Shown: in pieces, positions 1,009-50,250 of the stretch
Layout of the letters: every line of letters begins with the position of its first letter
How positions within the stretch are numbered: the stretch's first letter is position 1
Assembly: GCA_001917905.1 (NCBI GenBank)
Contig: MNEX01000282.1
Coordinates: forward strand, 1-50,310
From: Acidobacteria bacterium 13_1_40CM_65_14
GTDB taxonomy: Bacteria > Acidobacteriota > Vicinamibacteria > Vicinamibacterales > CAVVIG01
Reading direction: 5' to 3'
Length of the DNA: 50,310 nt
Translations under genes and position numbers: made by a program
The notes under the pieces: generated by a model
What the model was told of the DNA's origin: nothing
Databases searched by the model: none
The model's input: the letters and a program-made list of their open reading frames with translations, nothing else

Positions 1009-1106
1009 CGCGTGGGGCCCCACCCCCACGCGTTCGGCTCAAGGCTGCCCCCGCTCGCTGACACGCTCGCACCGTGGTGCTCGCGTGTATCCAGAACAGA
1101 ACGTCG
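1009..1106. repeat. GGGGCCCCACCCCC-core hairpin repeat, subfamily A
   Basis: Core at 1014-1027. The tail ctgacacgctcgc..gtgg..ctcgcgtgtatc.agaacagaacg is shared with the copy at 33738-33809 (inverted) and resembles the copies at 27368-27515. Confidence 0.85.
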
Positions 1107-1114
1107 CCACGGGC

Positions 1115-1204
1115 TCAGAATCGTTCCGGCCGGAGCAGCGCGACCGTGAGATAGACGAGCAGCCCCACGGTCACGATCAGGCCGACAATGTAGTCCACGG
1201 TCAT
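1115..1204 (-). CDS. kdpF: K+-transporting ATPase subunit F (29 aa)
   Basis: MTVDYIVGLIVTVGLLVYLTVALLRPERF has one TM helix and the C-terminal PERF motif. It has a GGAGG SD and lies directly upstream of kdpA. Confidence 0.93.
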   Translation of the reverse strand: MTVDYIVGLIVTVGLLVYLTVALLRPERF

Positions 1205-1299
1205 TGCGAACCTCCGCGCAGGCGATCACAACCGACGACGTAGGCGACGCCGATTGCGAAGAATGCCACCGTGCCCAGAACGAACAGCACATCCAACAT
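1201..1299 (-). CDS. Small hydrophobic peptide (32 aa) upstream of kdpF
   Basis: MLDVLFVLGTVAFFAIGVAYVVGCDRLRGGSQ. AGGA lies 5 nt upstream, and the stop overlaps the kdpF start (ATGA coupling). Confidence 0.75.
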   Translation of the reverse strand: MLDVLFVLGTVAFFAIGVAYVVGCDRLRGGSQ

Positions 1300-1306
1300 A
1301 GCGGTC

Positions 1307-2839
1307 CTATCGTGAAAGGACGCCGTCGAACGTCAGAATCACGGCGACCCCGAAGAGCTGCTGCGTGGGCGTCAAACCAACCTCGTCGAAGAACCCACCG
1401 GCCGGCCCGCGCGAGTCGTCGACACGATACTCGCCGCGAACGATCGCCTGCGCGCCGCGATAGGCCTTGCGGTACTCGACTGTTGCCGTCAGCGCCTTCA
1501 CCGACTGCTCGCCACCGATCCAACGACCGTCGCGATCCCAGGCGAGCTCCGGACGGACAGTCAGCGACCACGGCTCTTGCACGCGCCAACGTACCGGCGC
1601 CTGAGCGGCCATCCACAACGCTCGTGGATCACCCGCGGTCGCGACATCCTCCGTGCCGAGCTGGTACTCGAACGCCATCGTCGCGGTGTCAGTCTTGCGT
1701 TCGACGATGCTGTCAGAGAAAAAGCGCCAGAACTTCGGCGCGGTCTCGGACTGATGCGGGCCGTACAACAACGTTTCTTTGACCGTCACACGATCGGTGA
1801 GTTTGTACGCGATCTGCGCGCCCGAGCTCGGCACGCTGTTCGCGTTCGCGAGATGCCAGTAGCCGTTCACAACGAACCCGGTCAGGGTCAGTCGGGACGT
1901 GACGGGATAGGCGACGTTTGCGCCGAGCATCAAATACGGCGTGTAGTCGCCCGTCCACGGACGCGTGTACGTCAGGTTGTCTTTGGCGTACAGCGAGTCG
2001 TAGCCGATCAGGCTGCTGAAGATGCCGCCCTGGATCGTGAGCCCGCTGCCGACCGGCGCGATGTACGACGCGTTGGTCGGGCCCAGATGCCGCAACCAAT
2101 CGGCGCCGGCGATGTTCGGCGCGGTCGCCGAGAAGCCGAACACCTTCGAATCCTGACCCGTTTGTCCTGTCGCCTCGATCCCCCAGCGCGAGGATTCGGA
2201 CGCGATCTTTCTCACGTACGCGCCCGCCATGTTCACGTCGAGCTCATCGACGCGCGGCGTGGTGCCACGATTGCGAAACAGATGGTTCGACGGATGGTTG
2301 AAGTCGTTCGCGTATGCGATGTCGACGAACCCGCCGTACTGGATCGTCATGTCGGGCGCCTGTGCGAAGACCACGTGAGCGCACGACAGCAGAATCGCAA
2401 GCGCGGCCGCGGCGCCGAGCGCGATGCGGCGGCCGCTCGCACACGGACCGGTTGCCGCGAACACCACGTGATACCCTTTTCGGCTGAGCTGATTGGCGAA
2501 GCGCTCTTCAGGTGACATGCGCCATCGACAGCTCGGCCCGCCGACGACCACCGTCGCCTCGGCGCTGATCAGTCGATCGATGAGGTCGCGAATCGAGCGG
2601 CACAGGCAAATCTGCACGTGGCCGTTGCCCTCGAGCGCGTCGATCAGCTGGCGATATCTGTCGGCAGCCACGTCGGTCATATCCGCGGGCGCGTCATCCG
2701 GCAGCTCGTAGCGCGCGATGCGGGGCACGACGATGGTCAGCCGGGCGCCTCTTCCCTTGGCCAGCGGCACAGCGGTTTCGATGGCGGCTCGCGTCCCTTC
2801 GTACGTCGTCGCGATCACCTGAACGGATGGCTTGAACAT
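1307..2839 (-). CDS. Outer-membrane beta-barrel (porin-like) protein with an N-terminal USP-like domain
   Basis: Probable start is ATG 2839 (GGAG upstream). The first ~130 aa are homologous to ORF 5419-5814. A signal-peptide-like segment (RRIALGAAAALAILLSCAHVVFA-Q) follows, then an amphipathic beta-strand body (GGFVDIAY, GIFSSLIGYDS, FVVNGYWH, RGEYRVD). Confidence 0.8.
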   Translation of the reverse strand: MFKPSVQVIATTYEGTRAAIETAVPLAKGRGARLTIVVPRIARYELPDDAPADMTDVAADRYRQLIDALEGNGHVQICLCRSIRDLIDRLISAEATVVVGGPSCRWRMSPEERFANQLSRKGYHVVFAATGPCASGRRIALGAAAALAILLSCAHVVFAQAPDMTIQYGGFVDIAYANDFNHPSNHLFRNRGTTPRVDELDVNMAGAYVRKIASESSRWGIEATGQTGQDSKVFGFSATAPNIAGADWLRHLGPTNASYIAPVGSGLTIQGGIFSSLIGYDSLYAKDNLTYTRPWTGDYTPYLMLGANVAYPVTSRLTLTGFVVNGYWHLANANSVPSSGAQIAYKLTDRVTVKETLLYGPHQSETAPKFWRFFSDSIVERKTDTATMAFEYQLGTEDVATAGDPRALWMAAQAPVRWRVQEPWSLTVRPELAWDRDGRWIGGEQSVKALTATVEYRKAYRGAQAIVRGEYRVDDSRGPAGGFFDEVGLTPTQQLFGVAVILTFDGVLSR

Positions 2840-2859
2840 TCGCGCGCGCTCCAACACCC

Positions 2860-2914
2860 ACGTTAGGAGGCGCGCGCTAAAGGCGGCTTGAAAAGGTCCT
2901 AAAAAATCGCTAAA
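2860..2914 (-). promoter_or_regulatory. Putative KdpE-dependent promoter: four 11-bp-phased boxes plus -10
   Basis: On the + strand CTAAA/TTGAA/CTAAA/CTAAA start at 2877, 2888, 2899 and 2910. The minus-strand -10 TAACGT is at 2865-2860. Confidence 0.65.
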
Positions 2915-3147
2915 CCACCGCGGACGAAAGAACCGTCGAGCTTCTCGTCGTTTTCAGCGACTTCTTCGAGGTCTTCAGCGTTACATAGGTCGCCGCCTTC
3001 TATGCTGGAGACATGGAAATCGAAACAGACCATCGCGTTCCTTCAAGCGTCGTCGCCGCCACATAGACCCGCAGTCGCTTTGACCCATCGCCTATCTATG
3101 GCATCCGGTGCGCCACGATCGGTTCTCGCCCAAGCAGCCATGCGTGC

Positions 3148-3202
3148 AGCATAGAAAGCGACGCCTCAAGTCGGGCGAAAAGGTGCCTATGAAGCCGCTT
3201 AA
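3148..3202 (-). promoter_or_regulatory. Degenerate third copy of the phased-box promoter
   Basis: Boxes CTCAA/CGAAA/CTATG/CTTAA start at 3165, 3176, 3187 and 3198. The -10 TATGCT at 3153-3148 has the same spacing as in the other two copies. Confidence 0.45.
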
Positions 3203-3203
3203 A

Positions 3204-5426: not shown

Positions 5427-5814
5427 TCGCGAACACCACCTCGTGACCGTGCCGTTTCAGGCGCGCGGCCAGGCGCTCCGCGGCCGTCGGCCACCACCAG
5501 CGATGTCGGCCGCCGATGACGACGTGAGCGCGACGACCGAGCATCAACCGGAAAACATCATGCCGACGCCGGCAGAGGCAGACCCGGACCACGACCTCGA
5601 GTCCCATACTCGACGCGAGGGCGCGGTACCGATCGGTGATCGCGGCTGCGTCGCTCGCGGCGGAAAAAGTTTCGAAGCGAGGCACGACGTGGGGGATGAG
5701 CAGAAGGAGACGCCCATCGGATCCGTTGACGAGGCGTGCCGCCTCGCTGAGCGCGCGGCGGGTTCCCTCGTCAGTCGTCGCGACGACGTGGAGTCCGCGG
5801 GAAACAGGGACCAC
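5419..5814 (-). CDS. Small USP-like protein (CLCR and GG..WW motifs)
   Basis: 131 aa with a USP-like alpha/beta pattern. It overlaps the next gene by 8 bp and is a paralog of the porin N-terminal domain. The GTG start lies 7 nt after a -10, suggesting a leaderless transcript. Confidence 0.75.
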   Translation of the reverse strand: MVPVSRGLHVVATTDEGTRRALSEAARLVNGSDGRLLLLIPHVVPRFETFSAASDAAAITDRYRALASSMGLEVVVRVCLCRRRHDVFRLMLGRRAHVVIGGRHRWWWPTAAERLAARLKRHGHEVVFANV

Positions 5815-5820
5815 GATTCC

Positions 5821-5875
5821 ACGGTATGAAGCGCCGACTAAAACCGGCCAAAAAAATCCCTAAAGAAACGCTAAG
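5821..5875 (-). promoter_or_regulatory. Putative KdpE-dependent promoter: four 11-bp-phased boxes plus -10
   Basis: CTAAA/CAAAA/CTAAA/CTAAG start at 5838, 5849, 5860 and 5871. The minus-strand -10 TACCGT is at 5826-5821. Confidence 0.65.
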
Positions 5876-5908
5876 CGGCCAGTCGCTCACTCGTCCTCGC
5901 CGGGCACA

Positions 5909-5962
5909 GCGGTAACCGACCCACGGCTCGCTGAGCAGGTAGCAAGGATGGGCTGGATCGGT
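5909..5962 (-). pseudogene. Relic of a second kdpE 3' end
   Basis: Translates as [18 protein letters not shown], against [18 protein letters not shown] at the C-terminus of the intact KdpE. Confidence 0.8.
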
Positions 5963-11708: not shown

Positions 11709-13547
11709 TCAATGCTGAAGGTGAAATGGCACGCTCGTGACGACCGTGTTCGGTTTGAACAGGAGGGCCCCCTTGATCAGCAGCGCGCGCTGGTTGTGAA
11801 AGAGATGATGCCACCATCGCGCCGGAACGAACTCGGGCAGGACAATCGTGACGTAATCTTCGGGGTGTTCGCCAGAGACCTGACCGACGTACTCGAGCAG
11901 CGGCTCCATCAGGGAGCGGTACGGCGATTCGAGGACGACGAGCGGCACGCCTTCTCCCCATCGTTCCCACTCTTTTTTGACCTGCTCGGTCGAGGCGGCA
12001 TCGATATTCACATAGATGGCCCGAACGTCGGGCGAGAGCGTCTTCGCGTAGTCGAGTGCCTCGACGACCGAACGATAAATGCCGCCGATCGGTACGATCA
12101 CCGTGTTGCGGCGCGGCCCCGGCGATTTCCATCCCTTGATCGACAACTGAGCGGCGACACCGTCGTAGTGTTTCCGGGTCATGCGGAAGAACAGGACGTT
12201 CAACGGGATCAAGAGGAGGATGATCCAGGCACCCTCGAGCGTCTTGGTGGTCGCCACGACGAGGAGCACGATCCCGGTGACGAGGGCTCCGAGGCCGTTG
12301 ATGAAGGCGCTCGTCCGCCATCCGGGCCCGCGCAGGCGCCGCCAATGGATGACCATTCCGGCCTGCGAGAGCGTGAACGACACGAACACGCCAATCATGT
12401 AGAGCGGAATCAGCGCGTGGGTATCGCCTCCGAAGGCGATGAGGAGGACGGCGGCCAACACACTGAGGCCCACAATCCCATTCGAGAACGCGAGCCGGTC
12501 TCCCTGGTTCATGAACTGCCGTGGAAGATAGCGATCGCGCGCGAGGATGGAGGCGAGCCGCGGAAAATCCGCGTACGCCGTGTTCGCGGCGAGCACCAGG
12601 ATCAACATCGTTCCGGCCTGCACGGCGTAGTACGCGAAGCCACGACTGCCAAACACGCCGCGCGCGAGCTGCGACACCACTGTTTCCTGTTCACTCGGAA
12701 CAATGTGGTACACGTGCGCCAGCAGCGTGATGCCGAGAAACATCGTGATCGCCAACACCACCATCATCAGCATGGTCGCGGCCGCGTTCTTGGATTCGGG
12801 CGGTTTGAACGCGGGCACGCCGTTCGACACCGCCTCGACGCCGGTCATGGCGGTGCAGCCATTGGAGAACGCCGTGAGGAGCAGGAACAGGCCCAAGGTC
12901 GCGCCTGTGGACGCCACCGGCGCGACGGCTGTGACCGGGGATACCGTCCCAGTCGCCACGCGCCAGATCCCCACTGCGATCAACAGCAGGATCGACACGA
13001 CGAAAAAGTACGTCGGCGCCGCGAAGATCTGTCCCGACTCGCGGATGCCCCGCAGGTTTCCGAGCATCAGCACGACGACGAACGCCAGCGTCAGCTCGAC
13101 GCGGTTCACGTGCCACTGCGGAAAAGCCGACGTGATCGCGGCCACGCCGGCCGCGATGCTGACCGCGACGGTGAGGACGTAATCGATCAGCAGCGATGCC
13201 GCGGCGACGAGCGCCGACGTTTCCCCGATGTTGTCTTTCGCGACGATGTACGCGCCGCCACCACTCGGATACGCGTAGATGGTCTGCCTATACGAGAAGA
13301 CGACCACGGCGAGAATCGCCGCGATGATGAACGCGATCGGGCTCGCGATGCTGAGCGCGCCGGCCCCTGCGAGAATCAGGACGCGCAGGATCTCTTCTGT
13401 CGCGTACGCGACCGACGAGAGCGGGTCCGACGAGAGCACAGCGAGACCCGTGACTCGCGACAGGCGTTCGTGGTGCGCCAGGTGTGACGGGATTGGTTTT
13501 CCGACGATGAAGCGCTTGAATTGGGAGAGGAGCCCTTCTTCGGGCAT
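11709..13547 (-). CDS. kimA: KimA/YdaO-like K+ transporter (APC/KUP family)
   Basis: 612 aa with KRFIVGKP, LSSDPLSSVAYATEEI, YPSGGGAY, TGVEAVSNG, LIPLY and SPYRS, the motif layout recalled for B. subtilis KimA. Preceded by a ydaO riboswitch. Confidence 0.88.
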   Translation of the reverse strand: MPEEGLLSQFKRFIVGKPIPSHLAHHERLSRVTGLAVLSSDPLSSVAYATEEILRVLILAGAGALSIASPIAFIIAAILAVVVFSYRQTIYAYPSGGGAYIVAKDNIGETSALVAAASLLIDYVLTVAVSIAAGVAAITSAFPQWHVNRVELTLAFVVVLMLGNLRGIRESGQIFAAPTYFFVVSILLLIAVGIWRVATGTVSPVTAVAPVASTGATLGLFLLLTAFSNGCTAMTGVEAVSNGVPAFKPPESKNAAATMLMMVVLAITMFLGITLLAHVYHIVPSEQETVVSQLARGVFGSRGFAYYAVQAGTMLILVLAANTAYADFPRLASILARDRYLPRQFMNQGDRLAFSNGIVGLSVLAAVLLIAFGGDTHALIPLYMIGVFVSFTLSQAGMVIHWRRLRGPGWRTSAFINGLGALVTGIVLLVVATTKTLEGAWIILLLIPLNVLFFRMTRKHYDGVAAQLSIKGWKSPGPRRNTVIVPIGGIYRSVVEALDYAKTLSPDVRAIYVNIDAASTEQVKKEWERWGEGVPLVVLESPYRSLMEPLLEYVGQVSGEHPEDYVTIVLPEFVPARWWHHLFHNQRALLIKGALLFKPNTVVTSVPFHLQH

Positions 13548-13552
13548 GGCGG

Positions 13553-13680
13553 ACCTTCCAACACGCCGGCGGGGTTAGCTGACGGGCTCGGACTCGGAAG
13601 TGTCCTACGGCGCCGCGGCGCCGATACGCCCCATGAAGCTCGGGTCCCCCGCGTCCTGCGAGTGGCGCAGGACTTAGGCC
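13553..13680 (-). ncRNA. c-di-AMP riboswitch (ydaO-yuaA class)
   Basis: The minus strand reads ...GCGGGGGACCC...GGGGCGUAUC...GUAGG...CCGAGCCCGUCAGCUAACCCCGCCGGCG...GGAAG, matching the ydaO consensus blocks. A -10 TAAGAT is at 13692-13687. Confidence 0.9.
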
Positions 13681-13718
13681 ACCTTTATCTTACGCCCGGG
13701 CAGCCCTGAAGGGCCGCG

Positions 13719-21065: not shown

Positions 21066-21254
21066 TCACTTACCAGATTCCTCCTTTTCGATCTTTTCCA
21101 CCTGCTTGGTGATGACTTCCCGCTGCGCGATCGTCGTCTTCTTGTGCTCGCCCGCGGTGACGCGCGGCGTCGATCCGGCGAGGAGCTGGCGCGCGCGCGC
21201 GCCGGCGGTGACGACGAACTCGAAGGAATTCGAGAGCTTGCTTCTGTCGATCAT
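21066..21254 (-). CDS. rpoZ: RNA polymerase omega subunit
   Basis: MIDRSKLSNSFEFVVTAGARARQLLAG..PRV..KKTTIAQREV, in the conserved gmk-rpoZ-coaBC order. Start trimmed to ATG 21254. Confidence 0.9.
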   Translation of the reverse strand: MIDRSKLSNSFEFVVTAGARARQLLAGSTPRVTAGEHKKTTIAQREVITKQVEKIEKEESGK

Positions 21255-21266
21255 TTTGACCTTTTC

Positions 21267-21320
21267 GCGGGGCCAACCCCGCATCTTCTTCTCGATGCTC
21301 GTGGGGCCCCACCCCCACTC
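21267..21320. repeat. GGGGCCCCACCCCC hairpin (core 21303-21316) plus degenerate copy (21267-21282)
   Basis: Direct match to the core motif. Confidence 0.8.
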
Positions 21321-21421
21321 GCCTCGCTCGCGTCGACACGCTCGCGAGAGCCGCCGGCGCTTCATCGCTCGCCTTCGGCTCGCGACGGTCGTTAGAACCG
21401 ACTGGCCGCTTGGGGAGCGGC

Positions 21422-22042
21422 TCAGCCAAACGTCTTGACGATTCCTTCCGCATCGGCGCGCATGCGGCGCAGCCGCGAGCGCTGGGCGATGACAATGCTG
21501 CGTAACCGATCGACCGCCGCGGTCAGCTCGTCGTTGACCACGACGAACTCGTAGTCGACGAAGGCGGCCACTTCTTCCCGCGCGACCTGGAGGCGGCGCT
21601 GGATCGCCTCCTCACTGTCCTTACTGCGTCCGCGCAGCCGCTGCTCCAGCACGTGCATCGACGGCGGCATGACGAAGATCGCCGTCGTCTCGATCCCTCG
21701 GCTGCGGACTTTCCTCGCGCCCTGGACGTCGATGACGAGCACGACGTCGTTTCCTTCGGCGAGCATCCGTTCCGTGTCGGCGGCGCTGGTCCCGTACAGG
21801 TTGCCGAAGACCTCCGCCCACTCGAGAAACTCGCCTGCCGCAATCATCGCCTCGAAGCGTTCGCGCGACACAAAATTATAGTCCACCCCGTCGATTTCGC
21901 CTGCGCGCGCCCGCCGCGAGGTGTAAGAGCGCGACATTTTGAGGTGCGGCGTGTGCTCGACGAGCCGTTCGACCAGCGTCGTCTTGCCGGCGCCCGACGG
22001 CGCGGAGACGATGAAGAGCAGCCCGCGGCTCTTACTCGACAT
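21422..22042 (-). CDS. gmk: Guanylate kinase
   Basis: SAPSGAGKTT, SYTSR..R.GEIDGVDYNF, FLEWAEVFGNLYGT and IDVQGA. Confidence 0.97.
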   Translation of the reverse strand: MSSKSRGLLFIVSAPSGAGKTTLVERLVEHTPHLKMSRSYTSRRARAGEIDGVDYNFVSRERFEAMIAAGEFLEWAEVFGNLYGTSAADTERMLAEGNDVVLVIDVQGARKVRSRGIETTAIFVMPPSMHVLEQRLRGRSKDSEEAIQRRLQVAREEVAAFVDYEFVVVNDELTAAVDRLRSIVIAQRSRLRRMRADAEGIVKTFG

Positions 22043-22925
22043 TCTGGACCTGTTCGCGCATCTTCTCCAGTTCCGCCTTGGCGGCGATGACGAGCTCGGA
22101 GACGCGAAGGCCGTCGGCCTTCGAGCCCATCGTGTTGACCTCGCGGTTCATCTCCTGGAGCAGAAAATCGAGCTTCCGCCCGCACGGCTCCGCGCTGTCG
22201 GAGAGCGCCGACCAGTGCGACACGTGGGCGCGGAAGCGCGCGACCTCTTCGCTGATGTCGGAGCGCGCGGCCATCCGGACGATCTCCTGCGCGACCGCCG
22301 TCTCGTCAGCCTGGAGATCGGTCCGCAGCTCGCGGACGCGGTCGGCGATCCGCTGCTCCATCGCCGAGCGACCCTCGTCGGCGGCGGCGGCGATGCGCTC
22401 GACCAGATCCGCGACGAGCGTGCGCCGCTCGTCCAGGTCGGCGCGCAGATGGTCCCCTTCGAGCGCGCGCATCGTGTCGAGCTCGGCGAGCCCCTGCGAC
22501 ACGACGTCACACGCCTGTGCCGCCAGCGCGTCCTGCTGCGAGTCGTCGTCGGACGGCTGTCGATCGCGGATGGAGATCGCCTGCGGAAAACGCAGCAGAT
22601 CCCCTGGCGTCAGCGCGCCGCCCACGAGGCCCATCTCGCGCGCGCGATCCAGCGCCGCGGCAACCGCCTGCGCGAACTCCGCGTTGAACTCGACCTCGAC
22701 GCCGGGCACCTGCCGAAGCTGCAGCGAGAGGCTCAGCTCCACGCGTCCACGCGCCACGCGTTTGCCGACGAGCGTGCGCACGTCGACTTCGAGCGCCGCG
22801 AGCGACTGCGGGACGCGCAGCTGCAGATCGAGATAGCGGTGATTCAGCGACTTGATCGTCACGGTCATCGTCGCGCGCTCGTCCTCGCGCGTGACCGTCG
22901 CGAAACCCGTCATGCTTTTGATCAT
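22032..22925 (-). CDS. yicC: YicC/YloC family endoribonuclease
   Basis: MIKSMTGF, KSLNHRYLD, GRKLDFLLQEMNREVNT.GSK and EKMREQVQNVE. Confidence 0.95.
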   Translation of the reverse strand: MIKSMTGFATVTREDERATMTVTIKSLNHRYLDLQLRVPQSLAALEVDVRTLVGKRVARGRVELSLSLQLRQVPGVEVEFNAEFAQAVAAALDRAREMGLVGGALTPGDLLRFPQAISIRDRQPSDDDSQQDALAAQACDVVSQGLAELDTMRALEGDHLRADLDERRTLVADLVERIAAAADEGRSAMEQRIADRVRELRTDLQADETAVAQEIVRMAARSDISEEVARFRAHVSHWSALSDSAEPCGRKLDFLLQEMNREVNTMGSKADGLRVSELVIAAKAELEKMREQVQNVE

Positions 22926-22934
22926 TTTTGCACT

Positions 22935-23060
22935 GGCGCCGGGGCCCCACCCCCGGCGCGAGCTGTCGCAGACACCTCGCCTCGGATGTCCATGTCCTCG
23001 GCTCGGCGCGCCACCCCAGCGCGGCTGCCGCGCTGGGGGCCCCGGTGTGGCCGCAGGCGC
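22935..23060. repeat. GGGGCCCCACCCCC hairpin repeat, subfamily B
   Basis: Core at 22941-22954. The tail cctcgcctcggat..ccatgtcctcggctcggcg is shared with 50163-50250. Confidence 0.85.
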
Positions 23061-23118
23061 TGCTGCGAAGGTGGAAAATAAGTACAACAGCTGTAGCGCG
23101 GCCCTTTCAGGGCCGCGA

Positions 23119-24885: not shown

Positions 24886-24920
24886 GGCGTCCGGCACTCC
24901 TAATCTAAAAGAGCGTCGCA

Positions 24921-25035
24921 AAATTACCTCGCCACCACAGGGGACACGGAGGACAGAGGTTCAAACCTGTCCAGAGCAAGATTTTCCCCAGTGTCCCCGT
25001 GTCCTCCATGGTGGAGAGCTTAATTCTGCAATGCG
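24921..25035. repeat. Palindromic MITE-like repeat (aattacctcgccaccac...ggtggagagcttaatt)
   Basis: Internal arms ggggacacggagg / tccccgtgtcctcc. A second copy lies at 30855-30935. Confidence 0.75.
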
Positions 25036-25065
25036 TCTAAAGGAGCGCTTTACCTGTCTCCATTG

Positions 25066-26067: not shown

Positions 26068-27358
26068 TGGAAAAGTAGGTGAAGCCGAGCGCGCGCATCT
26101 GCTCGGGCGAATAGATGTTGCGGCCGTCGAACACGATCGGCGCGCGCAAAAGCGATCGCATCTTCGCGAAGTCGGGCTCGCGGAACTCGTTCCACTCGGT
26201 CACGATCGCCAGCGCGTCGGCGCCCGACAACGCGTCGTAGCTCTTCTCGCACACCGCAATGCGGCCGTCGAACAGGCGCTTCGCCACCGGTCCGGCCGCG
26301 GGATCGTACGCGCGCACCGTCGCGCCGCGCTGGAGCAGCGTCTCGATGATCTCAATCGCGGGCGCTTCGCGCATGTCATCGGTCCGCGGCTTGAACGCGA
26401 GACCCCAGAGCGCAATGGTCTTGCCGCGCAGATCCTTGAAGTGCCCCTCCATTTTCTCGACGAGCCGCTGCTTCTGCTTCTCGTTGGCGGCCTCGACGGC
26501 GCTCAGAATGCCGAAGTCGTAGCCGTGGTCCTGGGCCGACTTGAGCAGCGCCTTGACGTCCTTCGGAAAACAGCTGCCGCCGTAGCCGACGCCGGGAAAC
26601 AGAAACGACGTGCCGATGCGGCGGTCCGCGCCGATCGCCCTGCGTACCTCGTCGACGTCGGCGCCGACCAGCTCGCAGACGTTCGCAATCTCGTTCATGA
26701 ACGAGATGCGCGTCGCCAGAATCGAATTCGCGGCGTACTTGCACAGCTCGGCGCTCGCCGTGCTCATGATGAGAATCGGCGCGCCCGTTCGCGTGAACGG
26801 TCCGTACAGCTCCCTCATCACGGCCGCCGCGCGATCGTCTTTCTCTTCGATCCCGATCACCACGCGATCGGGTTTCATGAAGTCCTCGATCGCAGCGCCC
26901 TGCTTCAGAAACTCGGGATTGCTGACGACGCTGAAGGGCTGCGTCGTTTCCTTGGCGATCGTCTCTCGAACTTTCTGCGCCGTGCCGACGGGCACCGTAC
27001 TTTTGTCGACGACGACCGTGTACGTGTTCATCGCGCGCCCGAGGTCGCGCGCGACGCCGAGGACGTGCGCCAAATCCGCGGAGCCGTCCTCGCCCTGCGG
27101 CGTGCCGACGGCGATGAACACAATCGCCGAGTCGTGGACGGCGGACGCGAGATCGGTGGTGAAGCGCAACCGTTCTTCGTGACGATTGTGCCGGACCATT
27201 TCCTCGAGGCCGGGCTCGTAGATCGGCATCCCGCCCGCGTTGAGGGTGGCGATTTTCGACCCATCCTTGTCCACGCACACGACGGCGTTGCCGTTCTCGG
27301 CGAAGCACGCGCCCAGTACGAGCCCGACGTACCCCGTTCCGACGACGGCGATTTTCAT
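26057..27358 (-). CDS. ugd: UDP-glucose 6-dehydrogenase
   Basis: MKIAVVGTGYVGL, KSTVPVGT, SNPEFL, GYGGSCFPKD and AFKPRTDD. Start trimmed to ATG 27358. Confidence 0.96.
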   Translation of the reverse strand: MKIAVVGTGYVGLVLGACFAENGNAVVCVDKDGSKIATLNAGGMPIYEPGLEEMVRHNRHEERLRFTTDLASAVHDSAIVFIAVGTPQGEDGSADLAHVLGVARDLGRAMNTYTVVVDKSTVPVGTAQKVRETIAKETTQPFSVVSNPEFLKQGAAIEDFMKPDRVVIGIEEKDDRAAAVMRELYGPFTRTGAPILIMSTASAELCKYAANSILATRISFMNEIANVCELVGADVDEVRRAIGADRRIGTSFLFPGVGYGGSCFPKDVKALLKSAQDHGYDFGILSAVEAANEKQKQRLVEKMEGHFKDLRGKTIALWGLAFKPRTDDMREAPAIEIIETLLQRGATVRAYDPAAGPVAKRLFDGRIAVCEKSYDALSGADALAIVTEWNEFREPDFAKMRSLLRAPIVFDGRNIYSPEQMRALGFTYFSIGR

Positions 27359-27367
27359 TTTCTTATT

Positions 27368-27515
27368 CGCGTGGGGCCCCACCCCCACGCGCTGACGCGC
27401 GTCGCGGCGTAAACCGCTCGCGCGTATCTAGAACAGAATGTTGCTGAGGGCCTACCCCCACGTGCTGACGCGTCGCGGCGTAGACCGCTCGCGCGTATCC
27501 AGAACAGGACGTCGT
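27368..27515. repeat. Tandem pair of subfamily-A hairpin repeats
   Basis: Core at 27373-27386 and a degenerate second unit from about 27447. Both end in cgcgtatc.agaacag. Confidence 0.8.
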
Positions 27516-27609
27516 GGTGGGCGACGTCACTGCGACATCCGTGACCGTGGATCATCACACGAAAAACTCAGGCAGAGTACCATAACAAGATACTGAGCCG
27601 GAAAGACTT

Positions 27610-27762
27610 CTAGCGGACCGTCTCAGCTGAATCAGTACTAATCACAACAAGCCTTCAACCGCGGTCTTCGGGCCGCGACAATGCGGGGCCCCCACCGCGC
27701 ACGCCTGCGCGGTGGGGTGCGAGCGGAGCGGCCCGGTAGTCGTGCGAGGAGAGACGCCACTA
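27610..27762. mobile_element. Second (inverted) MITE copy with an extra internal hairpin
   Basis: Its reverse complement matches 15525-15637 at both ends. It carries an extra gcggggcccccaccgcgc..gcgcggtggggtgc at about 27683-27720. Confidence 0.72.
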
Positions 27763-27763
27763 A

Positions 27764-32620: not shown

Positions 32621-33733
32621 GTGCGCATAGGGATCGACGCACGAAAGCTCCACGACTTCGGCATCGGCACTTACATCCGAAACCTGCTGCGGCAGCTCGC
32701 GCGGCTCGACCGCGAGACCGAGTTCGTGGTGTTCTGCCGTCCCGACGATCGTGAGGCGCTGACGTCGCTCGGCGAGAACTTCCGGCCGGTCCCCGAGCGC
32801 TCCGCCAACTACTCGGTCGCCGAGCAGCTGTCGATTCCCCTCGCGCTGCGGCGTGAAGGCATCACGCTGTTTCACGCGCCGCACTACGTCCTGCCGCCGC
32901 TCGTGCGCTGCCGATCGGTCGTCACGATCCACGACTGCATCCATCTGATGTTTCCGCAGTATCTGCCCAGCCGTCTCGCGCTGCAGTACGCGCGCACGTC
33001 GATTGCGCTGGCGGCGCGCCGGGCCGCCCGGGTCATGACCGTCTCGGAGAGCTCGAAGCGCGACATCCTGCGGTTCGTCGACGTGAAGCCGGAGAAGATC
33101 GACGTGATCTACAACGCGTACGACGAGCGATTCACCATCGAGCCGCGCGAGGAAGACGTCGTGCGCGTCCGCGAGCGCTATCAGCTGCACGACGAGTTCG
33201 TGCTCTACGCCGGCAACGTCAAGCCGCACAAAAACCTCGAGCGGCTGATCGACGCGTTCGATCTGGTACGCAAGCGCGGCCTGGATCATCTGAAGCTCGT
33301 GATGATCGGCGACGACATCTCGAAGTACACCGCGCTGCGCCGGGCCGTGCACCAGCATCAGCTGCACAAGTACGTCCGCTTCCTCGGCTATCTGCCGGAA
33401 GAGACGCTCGCGGTGATGTACCGGCTCGCCGGTGTGTTCGTGTTCCCGTCGCTCTACGAAGGCTTCGGCCTGCCGCCCCTCGAGGCGATGGCGAGCGGCA
33501 CGCCGGTCGTCACGTCGAACGTGTCGTCGCTGCCCGAGGTGGCGGGCGACGCCGCGGTGCTGGTCGATCCGTACGACGCGCTCTCGATTGCCGACGGCAT
33601 CCATCGCGTGCTGACCGACGAGACGCTGCGCCGCGATCTCCGCAAGAAGGGCGTCGCGCGCGCCGGCATGTTTTCGTGGGAAGCGTCGGTCCGGCGCGTC
33701 CACAAGATCTACATGCAGATCGCGAAACAATGA
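32621..33733 (+). CDS. Glycosyltransferase family 4
   Basis: (M)RIGIDARK..FGIGTY, TIHD, KPHKN and EGFGLPPLEAM. Start trimmed to GTG 32621. Confidence 0.93.
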   Translation: MRIGIDARKLHDFGIGTYIRNLLRQLARLDRETEFVVFCRPDDREALTSLGENFRPVPERSANYSVAEQLSIPLALRREGITLFHAPHYVLPPLVRCRSVVTIHDCIHLMFPQYLPSRLALQYARTSIALAARRAARVMTVSESSKRDILRFVDVKPEKIDVIYNAYDERFTIEPREEDVVRVRERYQLHDEFVLYAGNVKPHKNLERLIDAFDLVRKRGLDHLKLVMIGDDISKYTALRRAVHQHQLHKYVRFLGYLPEETLAVMYRLAGVFVFPSLYEGFGLPPLEAMASGTPVVTSNVSSLPEVAGDAAVLVDPYDALSIADGIHRVLTDETLRRDLRKKGVARAGMFSWEASVRRVHKIYMQIAKQ

Positions 33734-33737
33734 ACAC

Positions 33738-33809
33738 AGCGTTCTGTTCTAGATACACGCGAGCGCCACGGCGCGAGCGTGTCAGGCGTGGGGGTGGGGC
33801 CCCACGCCC
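33738..33809. repeat. Subfamily-A hairpin repeat (reverse orientation)
   Basis: GGGGGTGGGGCCCC at 33790-33803. The tail matches 1055-1103 in reverse. Confidence 0.85.
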
Positions 33810-33816
33810 ATAACAA

Positions 33817-34923
33817 ATGAGCGTCGCCCTCGTCCACGACTGGCTGACCGGCATGCGCGGCGGCGAGCGCGTGCTCGAAGCCCTCTGCGAGCGCTATCCC
33901 GAGGCCGAATTGTTCACGCTGCTCCACGTCCCCGGATCGGTGACGCCGTCCATCGAGCAGCGGCCGATTCACACCTCAGCGCTGCAGTACTTGCCCGGCA
34001 TCCGCCACTACTACCGTGAATGCCTTCCGCTGTTTCCGGTGCTCGTCGAGCAATTCGATCTGGAACGGTTCGACCTCGTCATCAGCAGCAGCCACTGCGT
34101 TGCCAAGTCTGTGCTGACGCGGTCCGATGCGCTGCACATCTGCTACTGCCACACGCCGATGCGCTACGCGTGGGATCAGTTCGGCGCGTACTTCGGCGCG
34201 GATCGGATCGGATGGGCTGCGAGCCGGCTGATGCGGTCGGTGATGGCGCGTCTGGCGCGATGGGATCGCGCCACGTCGGACCGCGTCGACCGCTATGTGA
34301 CGAACTCACAGCATGTTGCCCGCCGGATCCGGACGTACTATAATCGCGACGCGATTGTGGTCTATCCGCCTGTCGACACCGATTTTTTTCATCCCGACGC
34401 GGCCGTGCCCGAGCGATACGCGCTGGTCGTGTCGGCGCTGGTCCCCTACAAGCGAATCGACGTGGCGATCGAGGCATGCCGTCGCGCGCGCCTGCCGCTG
34501 AAGATCGTCGGCAAGGGACCGGATCGCGCGCGCCTCGAGCGCGCGGCGCGCGCGAACGGCCCGGGCAGCGACGTCGAGTTCCTCGGCCGCGTCCCTGACG
34601 ATCGGCTCCGCGATCTCTATCGCCGCGCGTGGCTGACGTTGATGACCGGCGAAGAGGATTTCGGGATCGCGCCGGTCGAAGCCCAGGCGTGCGGACGGCC
34701 GGTCGTCGCGCTCGCCCGCGGCGGCGCGCTCGAGACCGTCATCCCCGGCGAGACGGGCGTGCTCGTCGACGAGCTCACCCCGTCAGCGTTTGCCGACGCC
34801 GTCGCGCAGGCGCTCGAGGCGCGATTCGATTCGGCCGCAATCCGGCGCCACGCGGAACAATTCGGACGCCAACGCTTCCGCAAGGACATGGCCGCGGTGA
34901 TCGAAGAGACCGCTGCATGCTGA
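33817..34923 (+). CDS. Glycosyltransferase family 4
   Basis: VALVHDWLTGMRGGERVL, CHTPMRY and EEDFGIAPVEAQACG. Confidence 0.93.
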   Translation: MSVALVHDWLTGMRGGERVLEALCERYPEAELFTLLHVPGSVTPSIEQRPIHTSALQYLPGIRHYYRECLPLFPVLVEQFDLERFDLVISSSHCVAKSVLTRSDALHICYCHTPMRYAWDQFGAYFGADRIGWAASRLMRSVMARLARWDRATSDRVDRYVTNSQHVARRIRTYYNRDAIVVYPPVDTDFFHPDAAVPERYALVVSALVPYKRIDVAIEACRRARLPLKIVGKGPDRARLERAARANGPGSDVEFLGRVPDDRLRDLYRRAWLTLMTGEEDFGIAPVEAQACGRPVVALARGGALETVIPGETGVLVDELTPSAFADAVAQALEARFDSAAIRRHAEQFGRQRFRKDMAAVIEETAAC

Positions 34924-47489: not shown

Positions 47490-47495
47490 GGATGA

Positions 47496-48500
47496 TTACT
47501 GCGTGCGCAGCCAGGCGATTGCGCGCTCGACGACTTGGGCGTCGCCCGCCACCATCTCGTCGGGCGTAATCGAATCGCCGTACGACGTGCCGGTGCGATC
47601 CGCCATCACGGCCGTCGTCAAATACAACATCGCGCCGTCGCTCAAGCGATAGGACCCATTCGCGGTCGACAGACCGCAGGTCGCCATGCCGAAGCTGCGC
47701 GCGTTCGGTCTGGCGCGGAACGAGATCGTGACCGCCTCGCCCGAGCTTGCGACGAGATTGTCGGTGAGCACCGCCACGCGCGGCGAGGTCCGTATCAAGA
47801 CGTGCACGCTCGACACCCTCGCCTGCGCGGATCCGTTCACCGTCGCCGCGCCGTTCGAGTACGCCCACTGGGACAACGACCCGCTCGGCGGGATGAAGTA
47901 GCCGGCAACTCCGTCGCCCAACACCGGGCCGACACCGGCGAGCATCGGCCACATGTTGCCACCGCCGTTGCCGCGCAGATCGACGATCCAGCCGGCGAGC
48001 CCCGGCCGATCGGATTCGCGAATCTGATCCTGCACTGAGTCGGCAAACGCGCGGACCGCTGCGATGTCGGTGCCGCCAAACGAACCGACCCGCACGTATC
48101 CGATGTCCGCCGGCACCGCCGGGTTCGACACGGCCGGCGCCGCACACCGCCGGCTCGACGGATTCCCGAGCCCGCTTCCCGACGCCGCCGTGTAGAAGCT
48201 GTGATGATCGTTGAGGAGACCGAGCGCGAGCGAGATCGCCGGATACGTGTCGGCAATCGACTGCGCGCCTTGCGCGCGCGCAAAGACCTGCGCGCGGAAA
48301 TCGGTCCAGTTGATCGTGCTGCGATTGATCGAATTGGCTTCCATCAGGCCGACGACTTCGTTGAGATAGATCGTCGCCGGCGATCCGTTGACGGCCGCCG
48401 ACGTGGGCGACGAAGGCGCCGTTGCCTGCGCGCCGCCGCAGGCAGCCGCGAACAGCGTGACGATGAGGATGAAGACGAGAGCCGCGCGCACGTTCCGCAT
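47496..48500 (-). CDS. S41-family peptidase, putative lipoprotein
   Basis: Lipobox-like FAAAC, DLRGNGGG, ASSGE and ITPD. Confidence 0.88.
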   Translation of the reverse strand: MRNVRAALVFILIVTLFAAACGGAQATAPSSPTSAAVNGSPATIYLNEVVGLMEANSINRSTINWTDFRAQVFARAQGAQSIADTYPAISLALGLLNDHHSFYTAASGSGLGNPSSRRCAAPAVSNPAVPADIGYVRVGSFGGTDIAAVRAFADSVQDQIRESDRPGLAGWIVDLRGNGGGNMWPMLAGVGPVLGDGVAGYFIPPSGSLSQWAYSNGAATVNGSAQARVSSVHVLIRTSPRVAVLTDNLVASSGEAVTISFRARPNARSFGMATCGLSTANGSYRLSDGAMLYLTTAVMADRTGTSYGDSITPDEMVAGDAQVVERAIAWLRTQ

Positions 48501-48544
48501 CGCGCGGCAGTATTGTACGACGAACTTCGGCCGGCGCTAGCGCG

Positions 48545-49021
48545 TCAAAAGAGCGCGTATGAGCACACGTCTTGATCGAAGCCGACGACGACCGGCCGAG
48601 GAATGAACCGGACCGCCGTGCCCATCCCGGTCGCACCCATGATGATGAGCAGGACACCGGCCATCATCGCGCACAGGAAGAGACCGTCGACGCCGTGCTT
48701 CGCCACGATGCCGGCGACGACGATGACGACTGCGCCGGTCGGTCCGGCGATCTGCGTCCGCGATCCGCCGAGCGCCGACACGAGGAAGCCGGTCACGATC
48801 GCCGTGTAGAGTCCTGCCTGCGGAGGCAGTCCGGACGCAATCGCGAAGGCCATCGCGAGCGGCAGCGCGACGAAGCCGACCGTGACGCCGGCGCTGATGT
48901 CGGCGATGGCGATGGATCGGTTGTAGCCGCGAATCGCCGTGAACAGCCGCGGCAGCAGCTGGCGGCGCGCCAACGCACGCAGCAGCGGGACGCGCGCGAG
49001 CCGCGCTGGCAACTGGGTCAT
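48545..49021 (-). pseudogene. Truncated SulP/SLC26 anion transporter (N-terminal fragment)
   Basis: DISAGVTVGFVALPLAMAFAIASG..GLYTA..GGS..QIAGPTG..FIPRPVVVGF, then unrelated residues and a stop at 158 aa. Confidence 0.8.
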
Positions 49022-49022
49022 G

Positions 49023-49667
49023 TCACACAGCCGCCGGTCGACCTCGCGGGTAGTCGATGTACCGCGCGGTCTCGTCGGCGACCTCGCGCCCGCACAGCCG
49101 CTCGACCACGTCGAAGGCCATGTCGATGCCCGCCGACACGCCGGCCGACGACACGATGCCGTCGCTGACCACGCGCGCATCGCGCTCGACCTGAATCGAC
49201 GGATCGAGCGAGGCGAGCAGATCGAGCGCCGCCCAGTGCGTCGTGGCGCGCCGACGGGTGAGCAGTCCCGTTTGCGCCAGTAGGAGCGCGCCCGTGCACA
49301 CGGACGTGACGAGCGACGCGCGCGCCGCCACCGACCGAATCCACGCGAGCGTCGTGTAGTCGTTGAGCAGCGCGCGCGTCCCGAACCCGCCGGGGATGAC
49401 CACGATGTCAATCGGCGGCGCGGCGTCCCACGCGTAGGTCGGCGTCACTTTCAATCCGCCAATCGCCGTCACGACGTCACTGGTGCGCGCGATGGTGAAG
49501 ACCTCGAACGGCGCGCTGTCGTCGCTGCGACGCGAATCCGCTCCCGGCACGAGCCGCGTGCGGGAGAACACTTCGAACGGACCGGCGAAGTCGAGCACCT
49601 CGACGTCGTCGAAGATCAAAATGCCGACGGTCTGCTTCTTTGTCACAGCTCCTTCGTCGTTTGTCAC
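49023..49667 (-). CDS. DJ-1/PfpI family protein
   Basis: EVLDFAGPFEVF, IPGG.G, SVCTGA, ATTHW and SAGVSAGID. The start may be GTG 49646. Confidence 0.93.
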   Translation of the reverse strand: MTNDEGAVTKKQTVGILIFDDVEVLDFAGPFEVFSRTRLVPGADSRRSDDSAPFEVFTIARTSDVVTAIGGLKVTPTYAWDAAPPIDIVVIPGGFGTRALLNDYTTLAWIRSVAARASLVTSVCTGALLLAQTGLLTRRRATTHWAALDLLASLDPSIQVERDARVVSDGIVSSAGVSAGIDMAFDVVERLCGREVADETARYIDYPRGRPAAV

Positions 49668-49700
49668 AATTCCTTCGTCGTTGTCACAATTCCTTCGTCA
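49640..49700. repeat. Three ~20-bp direct repeats at the GNAT/DJ-1 junction
   Basis: ttgtcacagctccttcgtcgt / ttgtcacaattccttcgtcg / ttgtcacaattccttcgtca. Confidence 0.85.
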
Positions 49701-50151
49701 TCAGCATGAAATGCGCCGGCTTGGTGAGCTTCGCTTCCTCAAACGGCATGGTGCCACAGTCTGTATAGCCAAGGGTTCGATAGAAGCCTGGCAGCTCCGT
49801 CCGGAGATTGACGATCTTGATGTCGACCGCCCGGCATCCGGCAGCGCGGCAGTACTGCTCCGCGGCCGCCATCATCCGTCGTCCGATTCCGCGTCTGTGC
49901 AGGCTCGGCTGCACCGCCAGCATACCGATGTAGCCGCGCTCGCCGCCCGGCTCGACGTAGATGCACGCGTCGGCGCCGCCGCCGTCGCCGTCGGCAATTA
50001 GAAACGTGCCCTTCTCGAGGTAGCTCGCGACATCGTCGATGTCGGTGCGATCGCGATCGACGAAGCGCCGTTCGACGACGAACGCGGCGTTGATCAGGGA
50101 CACGAGCAGCGGGACGTCGGTGATGGTCGCGGTGCGAATCGTATTCGTCAT
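49684..50151 (-). CDS. GNAT family N-acetyltransferase
   Basis: MLAVQPSLHRRGIGRRMM (motif A) and FYRTLGY. Confidence 0.9.
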   Translation of the reverse strand: MTNTIRTATITDVPLLVSLINAAFVVERRFVDRDRTDIDDVASYLEKGTFLIADGDGGGADACIYVEPGGERGYIGMLAVQPSLHRRGIGRRMMAAAEQYCRAAGCRAVDIKIVNLRTELPGFYRTLGYTDCGTMPFEEAKLTKPAHFMLMTKEL

Positions 50152-50162
50152 CTTTTTTCAAC

Positions 50163-50250
50163 GGCGCTGGGGCCCCACCCCCAGCGCGAACTGACGCTGA
50201 CGCCTCGCCTCGGATTCCCATGTCCTCGGCTCGGCGTGGCCGCAGGCGCG
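50163..50250. repeat. Subfamily-B hairpin repeat
   Basis: Core at 50169-50182. The tail is shared with 22935-23060. Confidence 0.85.

Follow-up and report, generated by a model that had tools for sequence, protein, structure and literature searches.

Repeat Family and Core Hairpin

Six hairpin sites in the window, the 50,310-nucleotide stretch of DNA that was analysed, were confirmed as copies of a dispersed, modular, multi-hairpin repeat family of the Vicinamibacterales (Acidobacteriota), which is best read as a MIRU/REP-like insertion family. The explanation that we favour, with moderate confidence, is that copies survive in stop-start junctions and 5' leaders because their A-rich tail would replace the ribosome-binding site. 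Judging from the sequence, the repeat probably doubles as a ribosome landing site.

The core, GGGGGTGGGGCCCC, matched the window exactly at 1014-1027(-), 21303-21316(-), 22941-22954(-), 27373-27386(-), 33790-33803(+), and 50169-50182(-), and had no exact match across 100 dinucleotide-preserving shuffles. At all six sites this is the reading on the strand of the gene downstream, with core-to-ATG gaps of 35 (kdpA), 48 (rpoZ), 15 (yicC), 14 (ugd), 13 (GT4), and 17 nt (GNAT), and none of these gaps contained GGAG, GAGG, or AGGA. The 5-nt stems flanking the core were CGCGT/ACGCG at kdpA and ugd, GCGCC/GGCGC at yicC, GGCGT/ACGCC at GT4, and GCGCT/AGCGC at GNAT; the rpoZ stem, CGAGT/ACGAG, pairs via a tandem G.A mismatch. 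The six cores, their strands, the ATG gaps, and the covarying stems were all as the original prediction gave them.

Exact cores numbered 323 in the 6.3 Mb genome, and 420 with at most one mismatch. Across the 323 copies, the Watson-Crick share at stem pairs 1-5 was 95, 97, 69, 69, and 83%, compared to 51, 58, 34, 32, and 45% in a shuffled-partner control, and pairs 3 and 4 formed a tandem G.A in a further 27% of copies. The stems occurred in 66 different combinations, enclosing a loop of 6 nt.

Rather than standing alone, the hairpin proved to be the 3' end module of longer composite repeats with at least three types of 5' module. A unit runs from the 5' module, which often provides or adjoins a stop codon, through GC-rich hairpins (one or several) whose stems are compensatory or tandem G.A, to the GGGG-GTGGGG-CCCC hairpin and an A-rich tail of 8-12 nt. 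The tail often contains TAA or TGA and ends 0-4 nt before the native ATG. The motif of a further small hairpin, GTGGGGCCCCGCGAG, had 158 matches genome-wide with at most one mismatch. Motifs B5 and C5 had many chance matches in GC-rich genes and were left out of the orientation claims.

Composite Repeats in the Window

The repeat between kdpF and kdpA fills the junction at 979..1105(-), directly before the kdpA ATG (976-978). From its type A 5' module (CGTTCTGTTCTGGATAC, 1087-1103), it continues through an upstream hairpin and the core hairpin (1009-1032) to a second small hairpin, which is degenerate, and an A-rich tail. In G004, which lacks the element, the kdpF stop lies 8 nt from the kdpA ATG. 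The second junction filled by a repeat, at 21255..21421(-), lies between the gene that the original prediction named rpoZ (ATG 21252-21254) and an upstream gene with its stop at 21422-21424, which we take to be gmk. Here, a type C-like 5' module and a nested extra module are followed by the core hairpin (21298-21321), a small hairpin (21267-21282), and the tail. This small hairpin had been described as a degenerate copy of the core; the hairpin is present, but forms a small module of its own. At kdpA, the 35-nt gap is accounted for by a similar degenerate small hairpin with a second A-rich tail. At the rpoZ junction, G003 carries a shorter element with the same core and G004 carries none.

A type B repeat at 22926..23061(-) precedes the yicC ATG (22923-22925) and comprises the 5' motif GCGCCTGCGGCC (23049-23060), a palindromic GGGGCCCC sub-module, the core hairpin (22936-22959), and the tail AGTGCAAAA. 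The same junction measures 39 nt in G003 and 37 nt in G004, both without the element, and holds a different repeat in G002. A small hairpin upstream of the yicC copy was terminator-like in appearance. The 5' region of ugd (ATG 27356-27358) holds two tandem type A copies at 27359..27513(-), of which the first, at 27443-27513(-), is degenerate and the second, at 27359-27442(-), is intact, with its core hairpin at 27368-27391 and the tail AATAAGAAA. Both are absent from G002, G003, and G004, where a conserved block of ~30 nt ends 4-8 nt before the ATG.

The only plus-strand copy in the window, a type A repeat at 33734..33816(+) with its core hairpin at 33785-33808, takes up the entire 83-nt gap from the upstream stop (33731-33733) to the GT4 ATG (33817-33819), its 5' boundary being uncertain by ~6 nt. 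The element is absent from this junction in G001, G002, G003, and G004, and in the last three the junction is ATGA, which we read as a stop/start overlap. The GNAT copy, a type B repeat at 50152..50250(-), lies between the upstream stop (50251-50253) and the GNAT ATG (50149-50151), with its core hairpin at 50164-50187 and the tail GTTGAAAAAAG; in G003, this junction has a 10-nt spacer, a GTG start, and two extra N-terminal codons. All six window copies were predicted to fold locally into hairpins, and their centroid structures left the tail and AUG unpaired. At gathering score, no Rfam family matched the element, the sole match in the window being a c-di-AMP riboswitch (13550-13690), and no tRNAs were found in the window.

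Orientation and Position Relative to Genes

The original prediction placed the hairpin in a fixed orientation just upstream of start codons, and neither orientation nor distance was random genome-wide. Between co-directional genes, 180 of the 323 copies were in sense and 17 in antisense orientation (binomial p 1.5e-35), with gene calls from a codon-usage ORF caller made for this analysis, whose start positions are approximate. The remaining copies were divergent and facing a gene start (51), convergent (8), within called ORFs (51 sense and 4 antisense), or at contig ends (12). Starts clustered 10-21 nt past the core, where the first in-frame start of the next gene was found for 119 of 285 copies with a downstream sense gene. 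Similarly, an ATG lay within 8-30 nt in 17 of 20 copies in G033 and 11 of 20 in G022. In a set of 82 copies from many MAGs, 41 had it 10-21 nt past the core, 24 of them at exactly 14 nt.

Long ORFs hold 36 copies deep inside them, with all three core frames in use, and 53 of 124 copies begin more than 12 nt past the upstream stop. The element is therefore tied to more than starts alone.

These positions also bear on a DNA-level role, in which the element would either be bound by a nucleoid or topology protein, as has been proposed for BIMEs, or work as an intrinsic terminator or attenuator between genes. A GC-rich palindrome in an intergenic location would suit such a role, as would the small hairpin upstream of the yicC copy, but strict sense orientation is unexpected for a duplex palindrome site, and 66 compensatory stem combinations favour folding over a fixed duplex binding site. 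Moreover, what follows the hairpin in the sense direction is an A-run rather than a U-run; read on the other strand, the T-run comes before the hairpin. We consider a DNA-level role highly improbable. Its terminator form was ruled out by the base frequencies at +24..+29 from the core start, where A reached 65-81% and T at most 10%.

Insertion into Native Junctions

Comparison with same-genus genomes supported the mobility of the element that had been predicted. At all 11 junctions examined (the six of the window and five more), at least one same-genus genome had an element-free junction, and at 10 of the 11 the codons after the ATG aligned with those of the relatives. The family would thus spread, or once have spread, by insertion. 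The genes flanking the element were syntenic in relatives without it, which ruled out an integron attC site. Sites of that kind separate mobile cassettes and carry a GTTRRRY core site, and no GTTRRRY was seen at the element ends among the copies listed.

The tail joins the native ATG of the downstream gene. Tandem copies are arranged head-to-tail, and the tail AGTGAAAA passes directly into the next unit, with an ATG between units in 1 of 10; the ATG was therefore ruled out as part of the element. Spacers of the relatives at filled sites were very short, from an overlap to ~35 nt, and unrelated repeat families sat in the same junctions in relatives. Where residual native spacer was visible, it lay on the 5' side while the tail touched the ATG, as at kdpA (9 nt), GT4 (6-7 nt), L009:10757 (8 nt), and L009:8817 (10 nt). 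A copy in G004 at L009:8817 was only apparent, arising from a gapped alignment, and G004 is empty there.

Neither terminal inverted repeats nor a TA duplication were seen. A target-site duplication was also rejected: TGA preceded the type A 5' motif in 30 of 47 copies, but its presence showed no association with an ATGA at the 3' junction (Fisher p 0.13, odds ratio 0.32). The TGA is therefore part of the element consensus.

Start Context and Proposed Role

Copies with an in-frame ATG at 10-21 nt carried an SD 4-mer in 8 of 96 cases (5 of 96 if the region was clipped at the stem), compared to 89 of 301 other unambiguous starts, and at least seven A in the 12 nt before the start in 56 of 96 compared to 7 of 301, the control being a small, selected set (316 of 4993 genes). 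At copies 22-35 nt from the ATG, the SD 4-mer was kept in 22 of 51. The predicted unpaired probability at -12..+6 was 0.60 (n=93) vs. 0.41 (n=286; Mann-Whitney p 9e-22), which is partly a plain outcome of A-richness. The tails in G033 and G022 were less A-rich, 3 and 5 of 20 tails, respectively, having at least six A of 10. The 3' end of the 16S rRNA, which would hold the anti-SD, was not found in the MAG with short probes.

An in-frame stop was enriched at -6 of the start, and ATGA was present at 51 of 96 starts. Counting stops in any frame, ATGA included, there was no enrichment (84 of 96 tails vs. 82.2 in shuffles), and the tail stop had no constant frame with respect to the core. In a study of SD-independent initiation, adenines at -3, -6, -12, and -13 and low structure are described as raising it (PMC6847099). 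The translation-initiation role put forward in the original prediction has its basis in sequence statistics: it fits the depletion of SD motifs, the A-richness of the tail, and the open structure predicted.

The analysis showed the repeat family with its orientation, position, insertion polymorphism, SD depletion, and predicted openness; that the element is transcribed, that ribosomes load on the tail, any influence on mRNA stability, and the way it moves are inferred. Copies last mainly in one orientation, in short stop-to-start spacers or 5' leaders, and in the mechanism proposed they would be co-transcribed with the operon. The hairpins would fold locally and lock up GC-rich sequence, and the unpaired A-rich tail would serve the downstream gene as an SD-independent ribosome landing site, replacing the SD or the stop/start coupling displaced by the insertion.

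A bolder version is possible, although doubtful. Here, the family would be a mobile "intercistronic cassette" that lands precisely at native starts and switches ~100 genes per genome to an A-rich landing pad insulated by structure, in place of SD or stop/start coupling. The stop in frame ~6 nt before the ATG would belong to this design. In a transcriptome of 65% GC, the built-in hairpins would insulate the pad and keep it open, and the exact 3' junction would be due to targeting of start regions, not survivorship. The 96-119 start-adjacent copies correspond to ~2% of called genes.

Survivorship by itself could yield much of the pattern. In a purely selfish or neutral insertion without a positive role, the orientation, the stop/start adjacency, and the A-rich tail would all result from it: gene-dense operons would tolerate insertion only in the few stop-start bases, and only copies that do not block translation would persist. 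The spacers of relatives are so short that any tolerated insertion must adjoin both genes. The unrelated repeat families in the same junctions, the in-frame copies within ORFs, and a copy number ranging from 323 to 5 inside one genus point the same way. Against this reading stand the residual spacers at kdpA, GT4, L009:10757, and L009:8817, which lie 5' of an element whose tail touches the ATG, and the ATG at exactly 14 nt in 24 of 82 copies of one subfamily across many MAGs. Furthermore, SD motifs are absent exactly where the tail adjoins the ATG and present elsewhere, which argues that those genes must initiate from the tail. We regard the purely selfish reading as unlikely.

The hairpins could also form an mRNA processing or stability module, with RNase III or RNase E entering or stopping at them to cut polycistronic mRNA between cistrons. 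The 5' hairpin that remains would protect the downstream cistron and produce differential expression within operons, which is compatible with a role as ribosome-binding site. REPs and Correia elements affect mRNA stability or are cut by RNase III, and stable, compensation-conserved hairpins with a single-stranded A-rich stretch directly 3', lying between cistrons in strict sense orientation, fit such a module. On the other hand, a single-stranded DNA transposition intermediate would explain the hairpin conservation equally well, and the in-frame intragenic copies would mean cuts inside coding mRNA. As an alternative to the landing-site explanation that we favour, processing is quite improbable.

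Relationship to Known Repeats

As summarized in PMC12548453, MIRUs are similar to this family in being short, located within operons, co-oriented with genes, and apparently mobile, in inserting at starts with hardly any damage to the gene that follows, and in occasionally forming tandem copies. Co-oriented operon spacers (180 vs. 17) and start-codon insertion (119/285; 10/11 junctions) were both found here. The same text states that MIRUs carry an ORF coupled to the gene at -4 nt spacing (PMC12548453). A bridging ORF of this type, from the upstream stop to the tail, was found in only 15 of 43 testable copies and was rejected as a feature of the family. Unlike MIRUs, the unit is GC-rich, multi-hairpin, and modular, with an A-rich tail and an in-frame stop enriched at -6. 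It belongs to a different phylum and is set beside MIRUs by description.

REPs, BIMEs, and REPINs, including CGTC-tagged REPs (PMC3733652), share abundant short hairpins, compensatory stem variation, strong copy-number differences among related genomes, mosaic modules, and some intragenic copies with the family. That study places most REPs downstream of genes, between ORFs that are co-directional or convergent, and describes them as often forming inverted dimers (PMC3733652), whereas the copies here are upstream of starts (51 divergent vs. 8 convergent), sense-oriented, and tandem head-to-tail. REPIN-type inverted doublets downstream of genes were accordingly rejected, with convergent regions holding 8 of 323 copies.

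In the 30 nt upstream of the core, 9 of 321 copies had a GTAG tag, compared to 25 in shuffles, and 129 of 321 had CGTC, compared to 33. In 110 of the 321, the core hairpin had CGTCAG at its 5' foot. In CGTC-tagged REPs, a stem of 8-9 bp encloses a loop of 4-5 nt and has CGTC at one end; here, the loop has 6 nt and an AG separates CGTC from the stem. No GGGGCCCC was found near the sole Y1 transposase gene of the genome (PF01797 match, G000 C103:122-460), within the first 3 kb of its contig. By hand tally, 23 of 32 core-bearing genomes and 20 of 29 genomes lacking the core had a Y1 gene, and G022, G024, and G015 had no PF01797 match despite 68, 32, and 30 core copies, respectively. With no repeats at the Y1 gene and Y1 presence not tracking the core, a RAYT link was rejected. 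The predicted label "REP-like" holds as an analogy only, given the absence of a GTAG tag, inverted doublets, and a linked RAYT gene, and a location upstream of starts instead of downstream of genes.

Rickettsia palindromic elements, which are mentioned in PMC3733652, are similar in that a subset lies in frame inside genes and is read through. Most copies here, by contrast, are intergenic and start-adjacent. To our knowledge, neither an orientation bias nor an A-rich tail is among the features of those elements. BOX elements of Streptococcus pneumoniae and Correia/NEMIS elements of Neisseria are co-transcribed and can alter the expression of neighbours, and they resemble the family as modular small repeats near gene starts. 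They have no sequence relation to it, and the family differs in its lack of terminal inverted repeats or a TA duplication and in the negative TGA duplication test. Literature searches on repeats returned no description of this family, which soil Acidobacteria carry in hundreds of copies; it is a further variant among the known bacterial repeats.

Distribution and Implications

The family is present across Vicinamibacterales MAGs; among the genomes tallied by hand, the core was found in 32 and absent in 29. If the tail drives initiation, hundreds of genes in a dominant but little-studied soil lineage would carry a portable ribosome-binding module of natural origin that needs no SD and brings its own structural insulator. 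Such a module would offer a direct handle on translation initiation in high-GC bacteria with weak SD usage, as well as parts for synthetic operon design. For annotation, a start codon that follows one of the repeats is prone to miscalling, and roughly one in nine copies lies within a gene and is read through. MAG assemblies break at the repeats, which are also usable as strain markers.

Placement and Orientation of the Core Hairpin

The 14-mer core GGGGGTGGGGCCCC was found six times in the window and never in 100 dinucleotide-preserving shuffles, in agreement with the original prediction of six exact cores. Allowing up to two mismatches added nothing in the window except overlapping readings of these six sites, which are palindromic. 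The fixed orientation proposed for these sites also held, as all six cores (read in core orientation) were sense relative to the gene that follows, and the core-to-ATG gaps of 35, 48, 15, 14, 13, and 17 nt were all reproduced. The 5-nt flanks of the six cores, which had been described as covarying stems, pair as written, with the rpoZ flanks (CGAGT/ACGAG) pairing via tandem G.A. Five of the window copies are on the minus strand and one is on the plus strand. Since the copies change strand along with the genes, the orientation bias tracks transcription rather than replication arm.

The window corresponds to contig C99 in a MAG of 6.33 Mb (342 contigs, 64.8% G+C, without rRNA), in which we identified 323 exact copies of the core and 420 with one mismatch. 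Genes were called using a purpose-written codon-usage ORF caller, for which stops are reliable and starts are approximate; the 4993 genes that it returned cover 85% of the sequence. Between co-directional genes, 180 of the 323 copies were sense vs. 17 antisense (binomial p = 1.5e-35). A further 51 copies were in divergent regions, facing the gene start, while eight were in convergent regions and 12 at contig ends. The remainder were inside called ORFs (51 sense and four antisense). Genome-wide, about 36 copies were deep in long ORFs and flanked on either side by coding signal, and all three frames were used.

Modular Anatomy and Predicted Folding

The core hairpin is the final hairpin of longer composite units and not a separate element. 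Type A units carry the 5′ module (T/C)GA-CGTTCTGTTCTGGATAC plus a hairpin, type B units (A)GCGCCTGCGGCC plus hairpins, and type C units GAGCGGAnAGTCG..., and many module combinations were observed beyond these types. A small hairpin, GTGGGGCCCCGCGAG, with a second tail is an optional 3′ addition to the composite unit. The copies have diverged, with the nearest full-length neighbour mostly 90–97% identical and only one pair identical, across 96 nt.

Across the 323 copies, the five pairs flanking the core were Watson-Crick in 95, 97, 69, 69, and 83%, compared to 51, 58, 34, 32, and 45%, respectively, with shuffled partners. These stems occurred in 66 combinations, and pairs 3 and 4 were tandem G.A in a further 27%. 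The other hairpins of the unit contained recurrent GCGAGC/GCGAGC and CCGAGG/CCGAGG stems, alternating with CCGCGG. This alternation between G.A and Watson-Crick stems points to single-strand folding, as either RNA or DNA. The tail that follows the core stem was A-rich (65–81% A across six positions in 317 copies). A role at the DNA level or as a terminator is one rival reading of such hairpins; both the A-run and the variation of the stems speak against it.

For the six window copies, the predicted RNA folds consisted of separate local hairpins (Z-scores −1.1 to −3.8). All six centroid structures left the tail and AUG unpaired, as did five of the six MFE structures.

Start Codons and Initiation Context

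A sense gene lies downstream of 285 copies, for which the distance to the first in-frame start was investigated. This start was 10–21 nt past the core in 119 copies, 22–35 nt in 55, and farther in 70; in the other 41 it was 5–9 nt away, mostly as a GTG within the type B tail. In 96 copies, hereafter start-adjacent, an in-frame ATG was present at 10–21 nt.

The original prediction noted no clear Shine-Dalgarno (SD) sequence, and GGAG, GAGG, and AGGA were indeed absent from all six window leaders. Genome-wide, an SD 4-mer was present in eight of the 96 start-adjacent copies (five if the region was clipped at the stem) and in 89 of 301 other unambiguous starts, with an in-gene control of 9%. Copies located 22–35 nt from the ATG had an SD 4-mer in 22 of 51 cases. 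The copies thus fall into two classes: the first represents insertion upstream of an SD that was kept, and the second insertion at the ATG itself, with no SD remaining.

Start-adjacent copies differed from other starts in composition and predicted structure. The 12 nt preceding the start contained at least seven A in 56 of 96 start-adjacent copies vs. seven of 301 other unambiguous starts. Predicted unpaired probability from −12 to +6 was 0.60 (n = 93) vs. 0.41 (n = 286; p = 9e-22), a difference due in part to A-richness. An in-frame stop within 12 nt before the ATG was observed in 42 of the 96 copies, while shuffled tails gave 24.4 ± 4.1 (maximum 38 in 500 shuffles). The same was noted in 22 of 41 start-adjacent copies from other MAGs (L072–L151), 19 of them at −6 (shuffles, 7.5 ± 2.3). 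Specifically, the enriched pattern is T[AG]A-NAA-ATG, which places a stop about 6 nt before the ATG and in frame with the downstream gene.

The best reading of these sequence patterns is an insertion-type repeat whose tail is a putative SD-independent initiation region. Copies would persist in junctions and leaders because the tail acts in this manner, and the adjacent hairpins would keep the initiation region of the tail open. PMC6847099 describes upstream adenines and low structure as favouring SD-less initiation, and the proposed role of the tail fits this evidence. A role in mRNA processing or stability is a rival explanation that is compatible with a role in initiation.

Filled and Empty Junctions in Relatives

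Four same-genus genomes (G001–G004) contain DNA syntenic with the source MAG at 70–93% identity; as kin genomes, they are non-independent samples. At the GT4 junction all four lack the element, and G002–G004 read ATGA there, which may be read as a stop/start overlap. The yicC junction is a gap of 39 nt in G003 and 37 nt in G004, and contains another repeat in G002. Upstream of ugd, an insert of ~220 nt, two type A copies included, separates a conserved block from the ATG in the source MAG and is missing in G002–G004. The rpoZ junction is empty in G004, and in G003 the element there is shorter but shares the core; the rpoZ insertion is therefore older, with a nested module gained in the source MAG. 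At the GNAT junction G003 has a 10-nt spacer. The genes kdpF and kdpA, which lie at the left end of the window, are 8 nt apart in G004. Five more junctions, on contigs C181 and C87, were empty in at least one relative, and two further junctions held different repeat families at the same spot in different species.

Codons after the ATG aligned with those of relatives at 10 of 11 junctions. The exception was GNAT, with an N-terminus two codons shorter and a GTG to ATG change. The surviving native spacer was always on the 5′ side (6–10 nt at four sites). In 124 testable copies, the start of the 5′ motif relative to the upstream stop was −2 to +3 nt in 35, 4–12 nt in 19, and farther in 53; the motif was unrecognised in 17. 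Pure survivorship is a rival explanation for the placement of the repeat.

The ATG lies outside the unit: at ten tandem joints the tail runs directly into a type B unit, with an ATG between in one. For the 5′ TGA of type A, a test rejected target duplication.

Comparison with Known Systems and Distribution

MIRU is the nearest known counterpart: PMC12548453 describes it as a mobile element that inserts at start codons and has a coupled internal ORF. The repeat shares this placement and orientation but does not match the coupled ORF. Just 15 of 43 copies had an ORF bridging the upstream stop and the tail, and MIRU-type coupling is therefore not the rule. With REP/BIME (PMC3733652), the repeat shares hairpin covariation, mosaicism, and patchy abundance, and differs in tag, placement, dimer form, and RAYT link.

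No mobilising enzyme for the repeat was found when the PF01797 gene of the source MAG and the genomes of relatives were checked. The GGGGCCCC hairpin was absent from the first 3 kb of the contig with the sole PF01797 gene of the source MAG, and by hand tally PF01797 presence did not follow the core (23 of 32 genomes with core vs. 20 of 29 without). This sole Y1 (RAYT-like) transposase gene is at C103:59–697. A different palindrome (GAGTCGGA..TCCGACTC repeats), unrelated to the core hairpin, lies ~400 nt downstream of it (C103 ~1090–1150). Among the matches listed for literature on Acidobacteria REP/intergenic repeats and Vicinamibacter repeats, no description of the family was found, which does not prove that none exists.

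The exact core was present in 32 of 61 related genomes, including the source MAG, with 0–1 matches per genome for the reversed control. Within the genus, counts were 323, 68, 23, 8, and 5. In the species collection, a 25-mer variant had at least 120 matching stretches; those listed were from MAGs labelled Acidobacteria, Acidobacteriota, Vicinamibacterales, or Vicinamibacteria, save two loci. These two exact matches (L085 and L124) are both in one Betaproteobacteria-labelled MAG and could represent mis-binning or transfer. In two other genera the same modules were observed, and start adjacency recurred.

Additional Features of the Window and Relatives

A c-di-AMP riboswitch (RF00379; 75.4 bits, E = 8.6e-16) was identified at 13550–13690 on the minus strand, with a 612-aa ORF, 11709–13547(−), directly downstream. 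In relatives (L001–L003; cf. window 27514–27620), a conserved block of ~30 nt, ..AAGTCTTTCC..CAGTATCTTATTG, ends 4–8 nt before the ugd ATG, a position that would be compatible with an mRNA that is leaderless or nearly so. On the opposite side of the divergent ugd region, a further repeat (27606–27763) has its own hairpin, GGGGGCCCC, at 27685–27693; it is missing at the same site in G002–G004 and has many look-alikes in G003. Another dispersed repeat of ~140 nt (24903–25041) fills the junction between minus-strand genes (end 25066, start 24897). This junction is only 9–18 nt in G002, G003, and G004, and similar stretches occur many times in G001.

On contig C181 (L008), two sense type A copies at 3180 and 4070 lie within a long ORF, in a variable linker where relatives have other repeats; the corresponding position in G002 is occupied by a type B copy in antisense. 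Tandem 7–8 nt units (GGCAGGT-like) form hairpins in junctions of G002, G003, and G004 (L022–L024). The same stop-start junctions in the source MAG (contig C87, L009, at 1925 and 10291) contain the core-bearing repeat instead. Such sites are hot spots for multiple repeat families.
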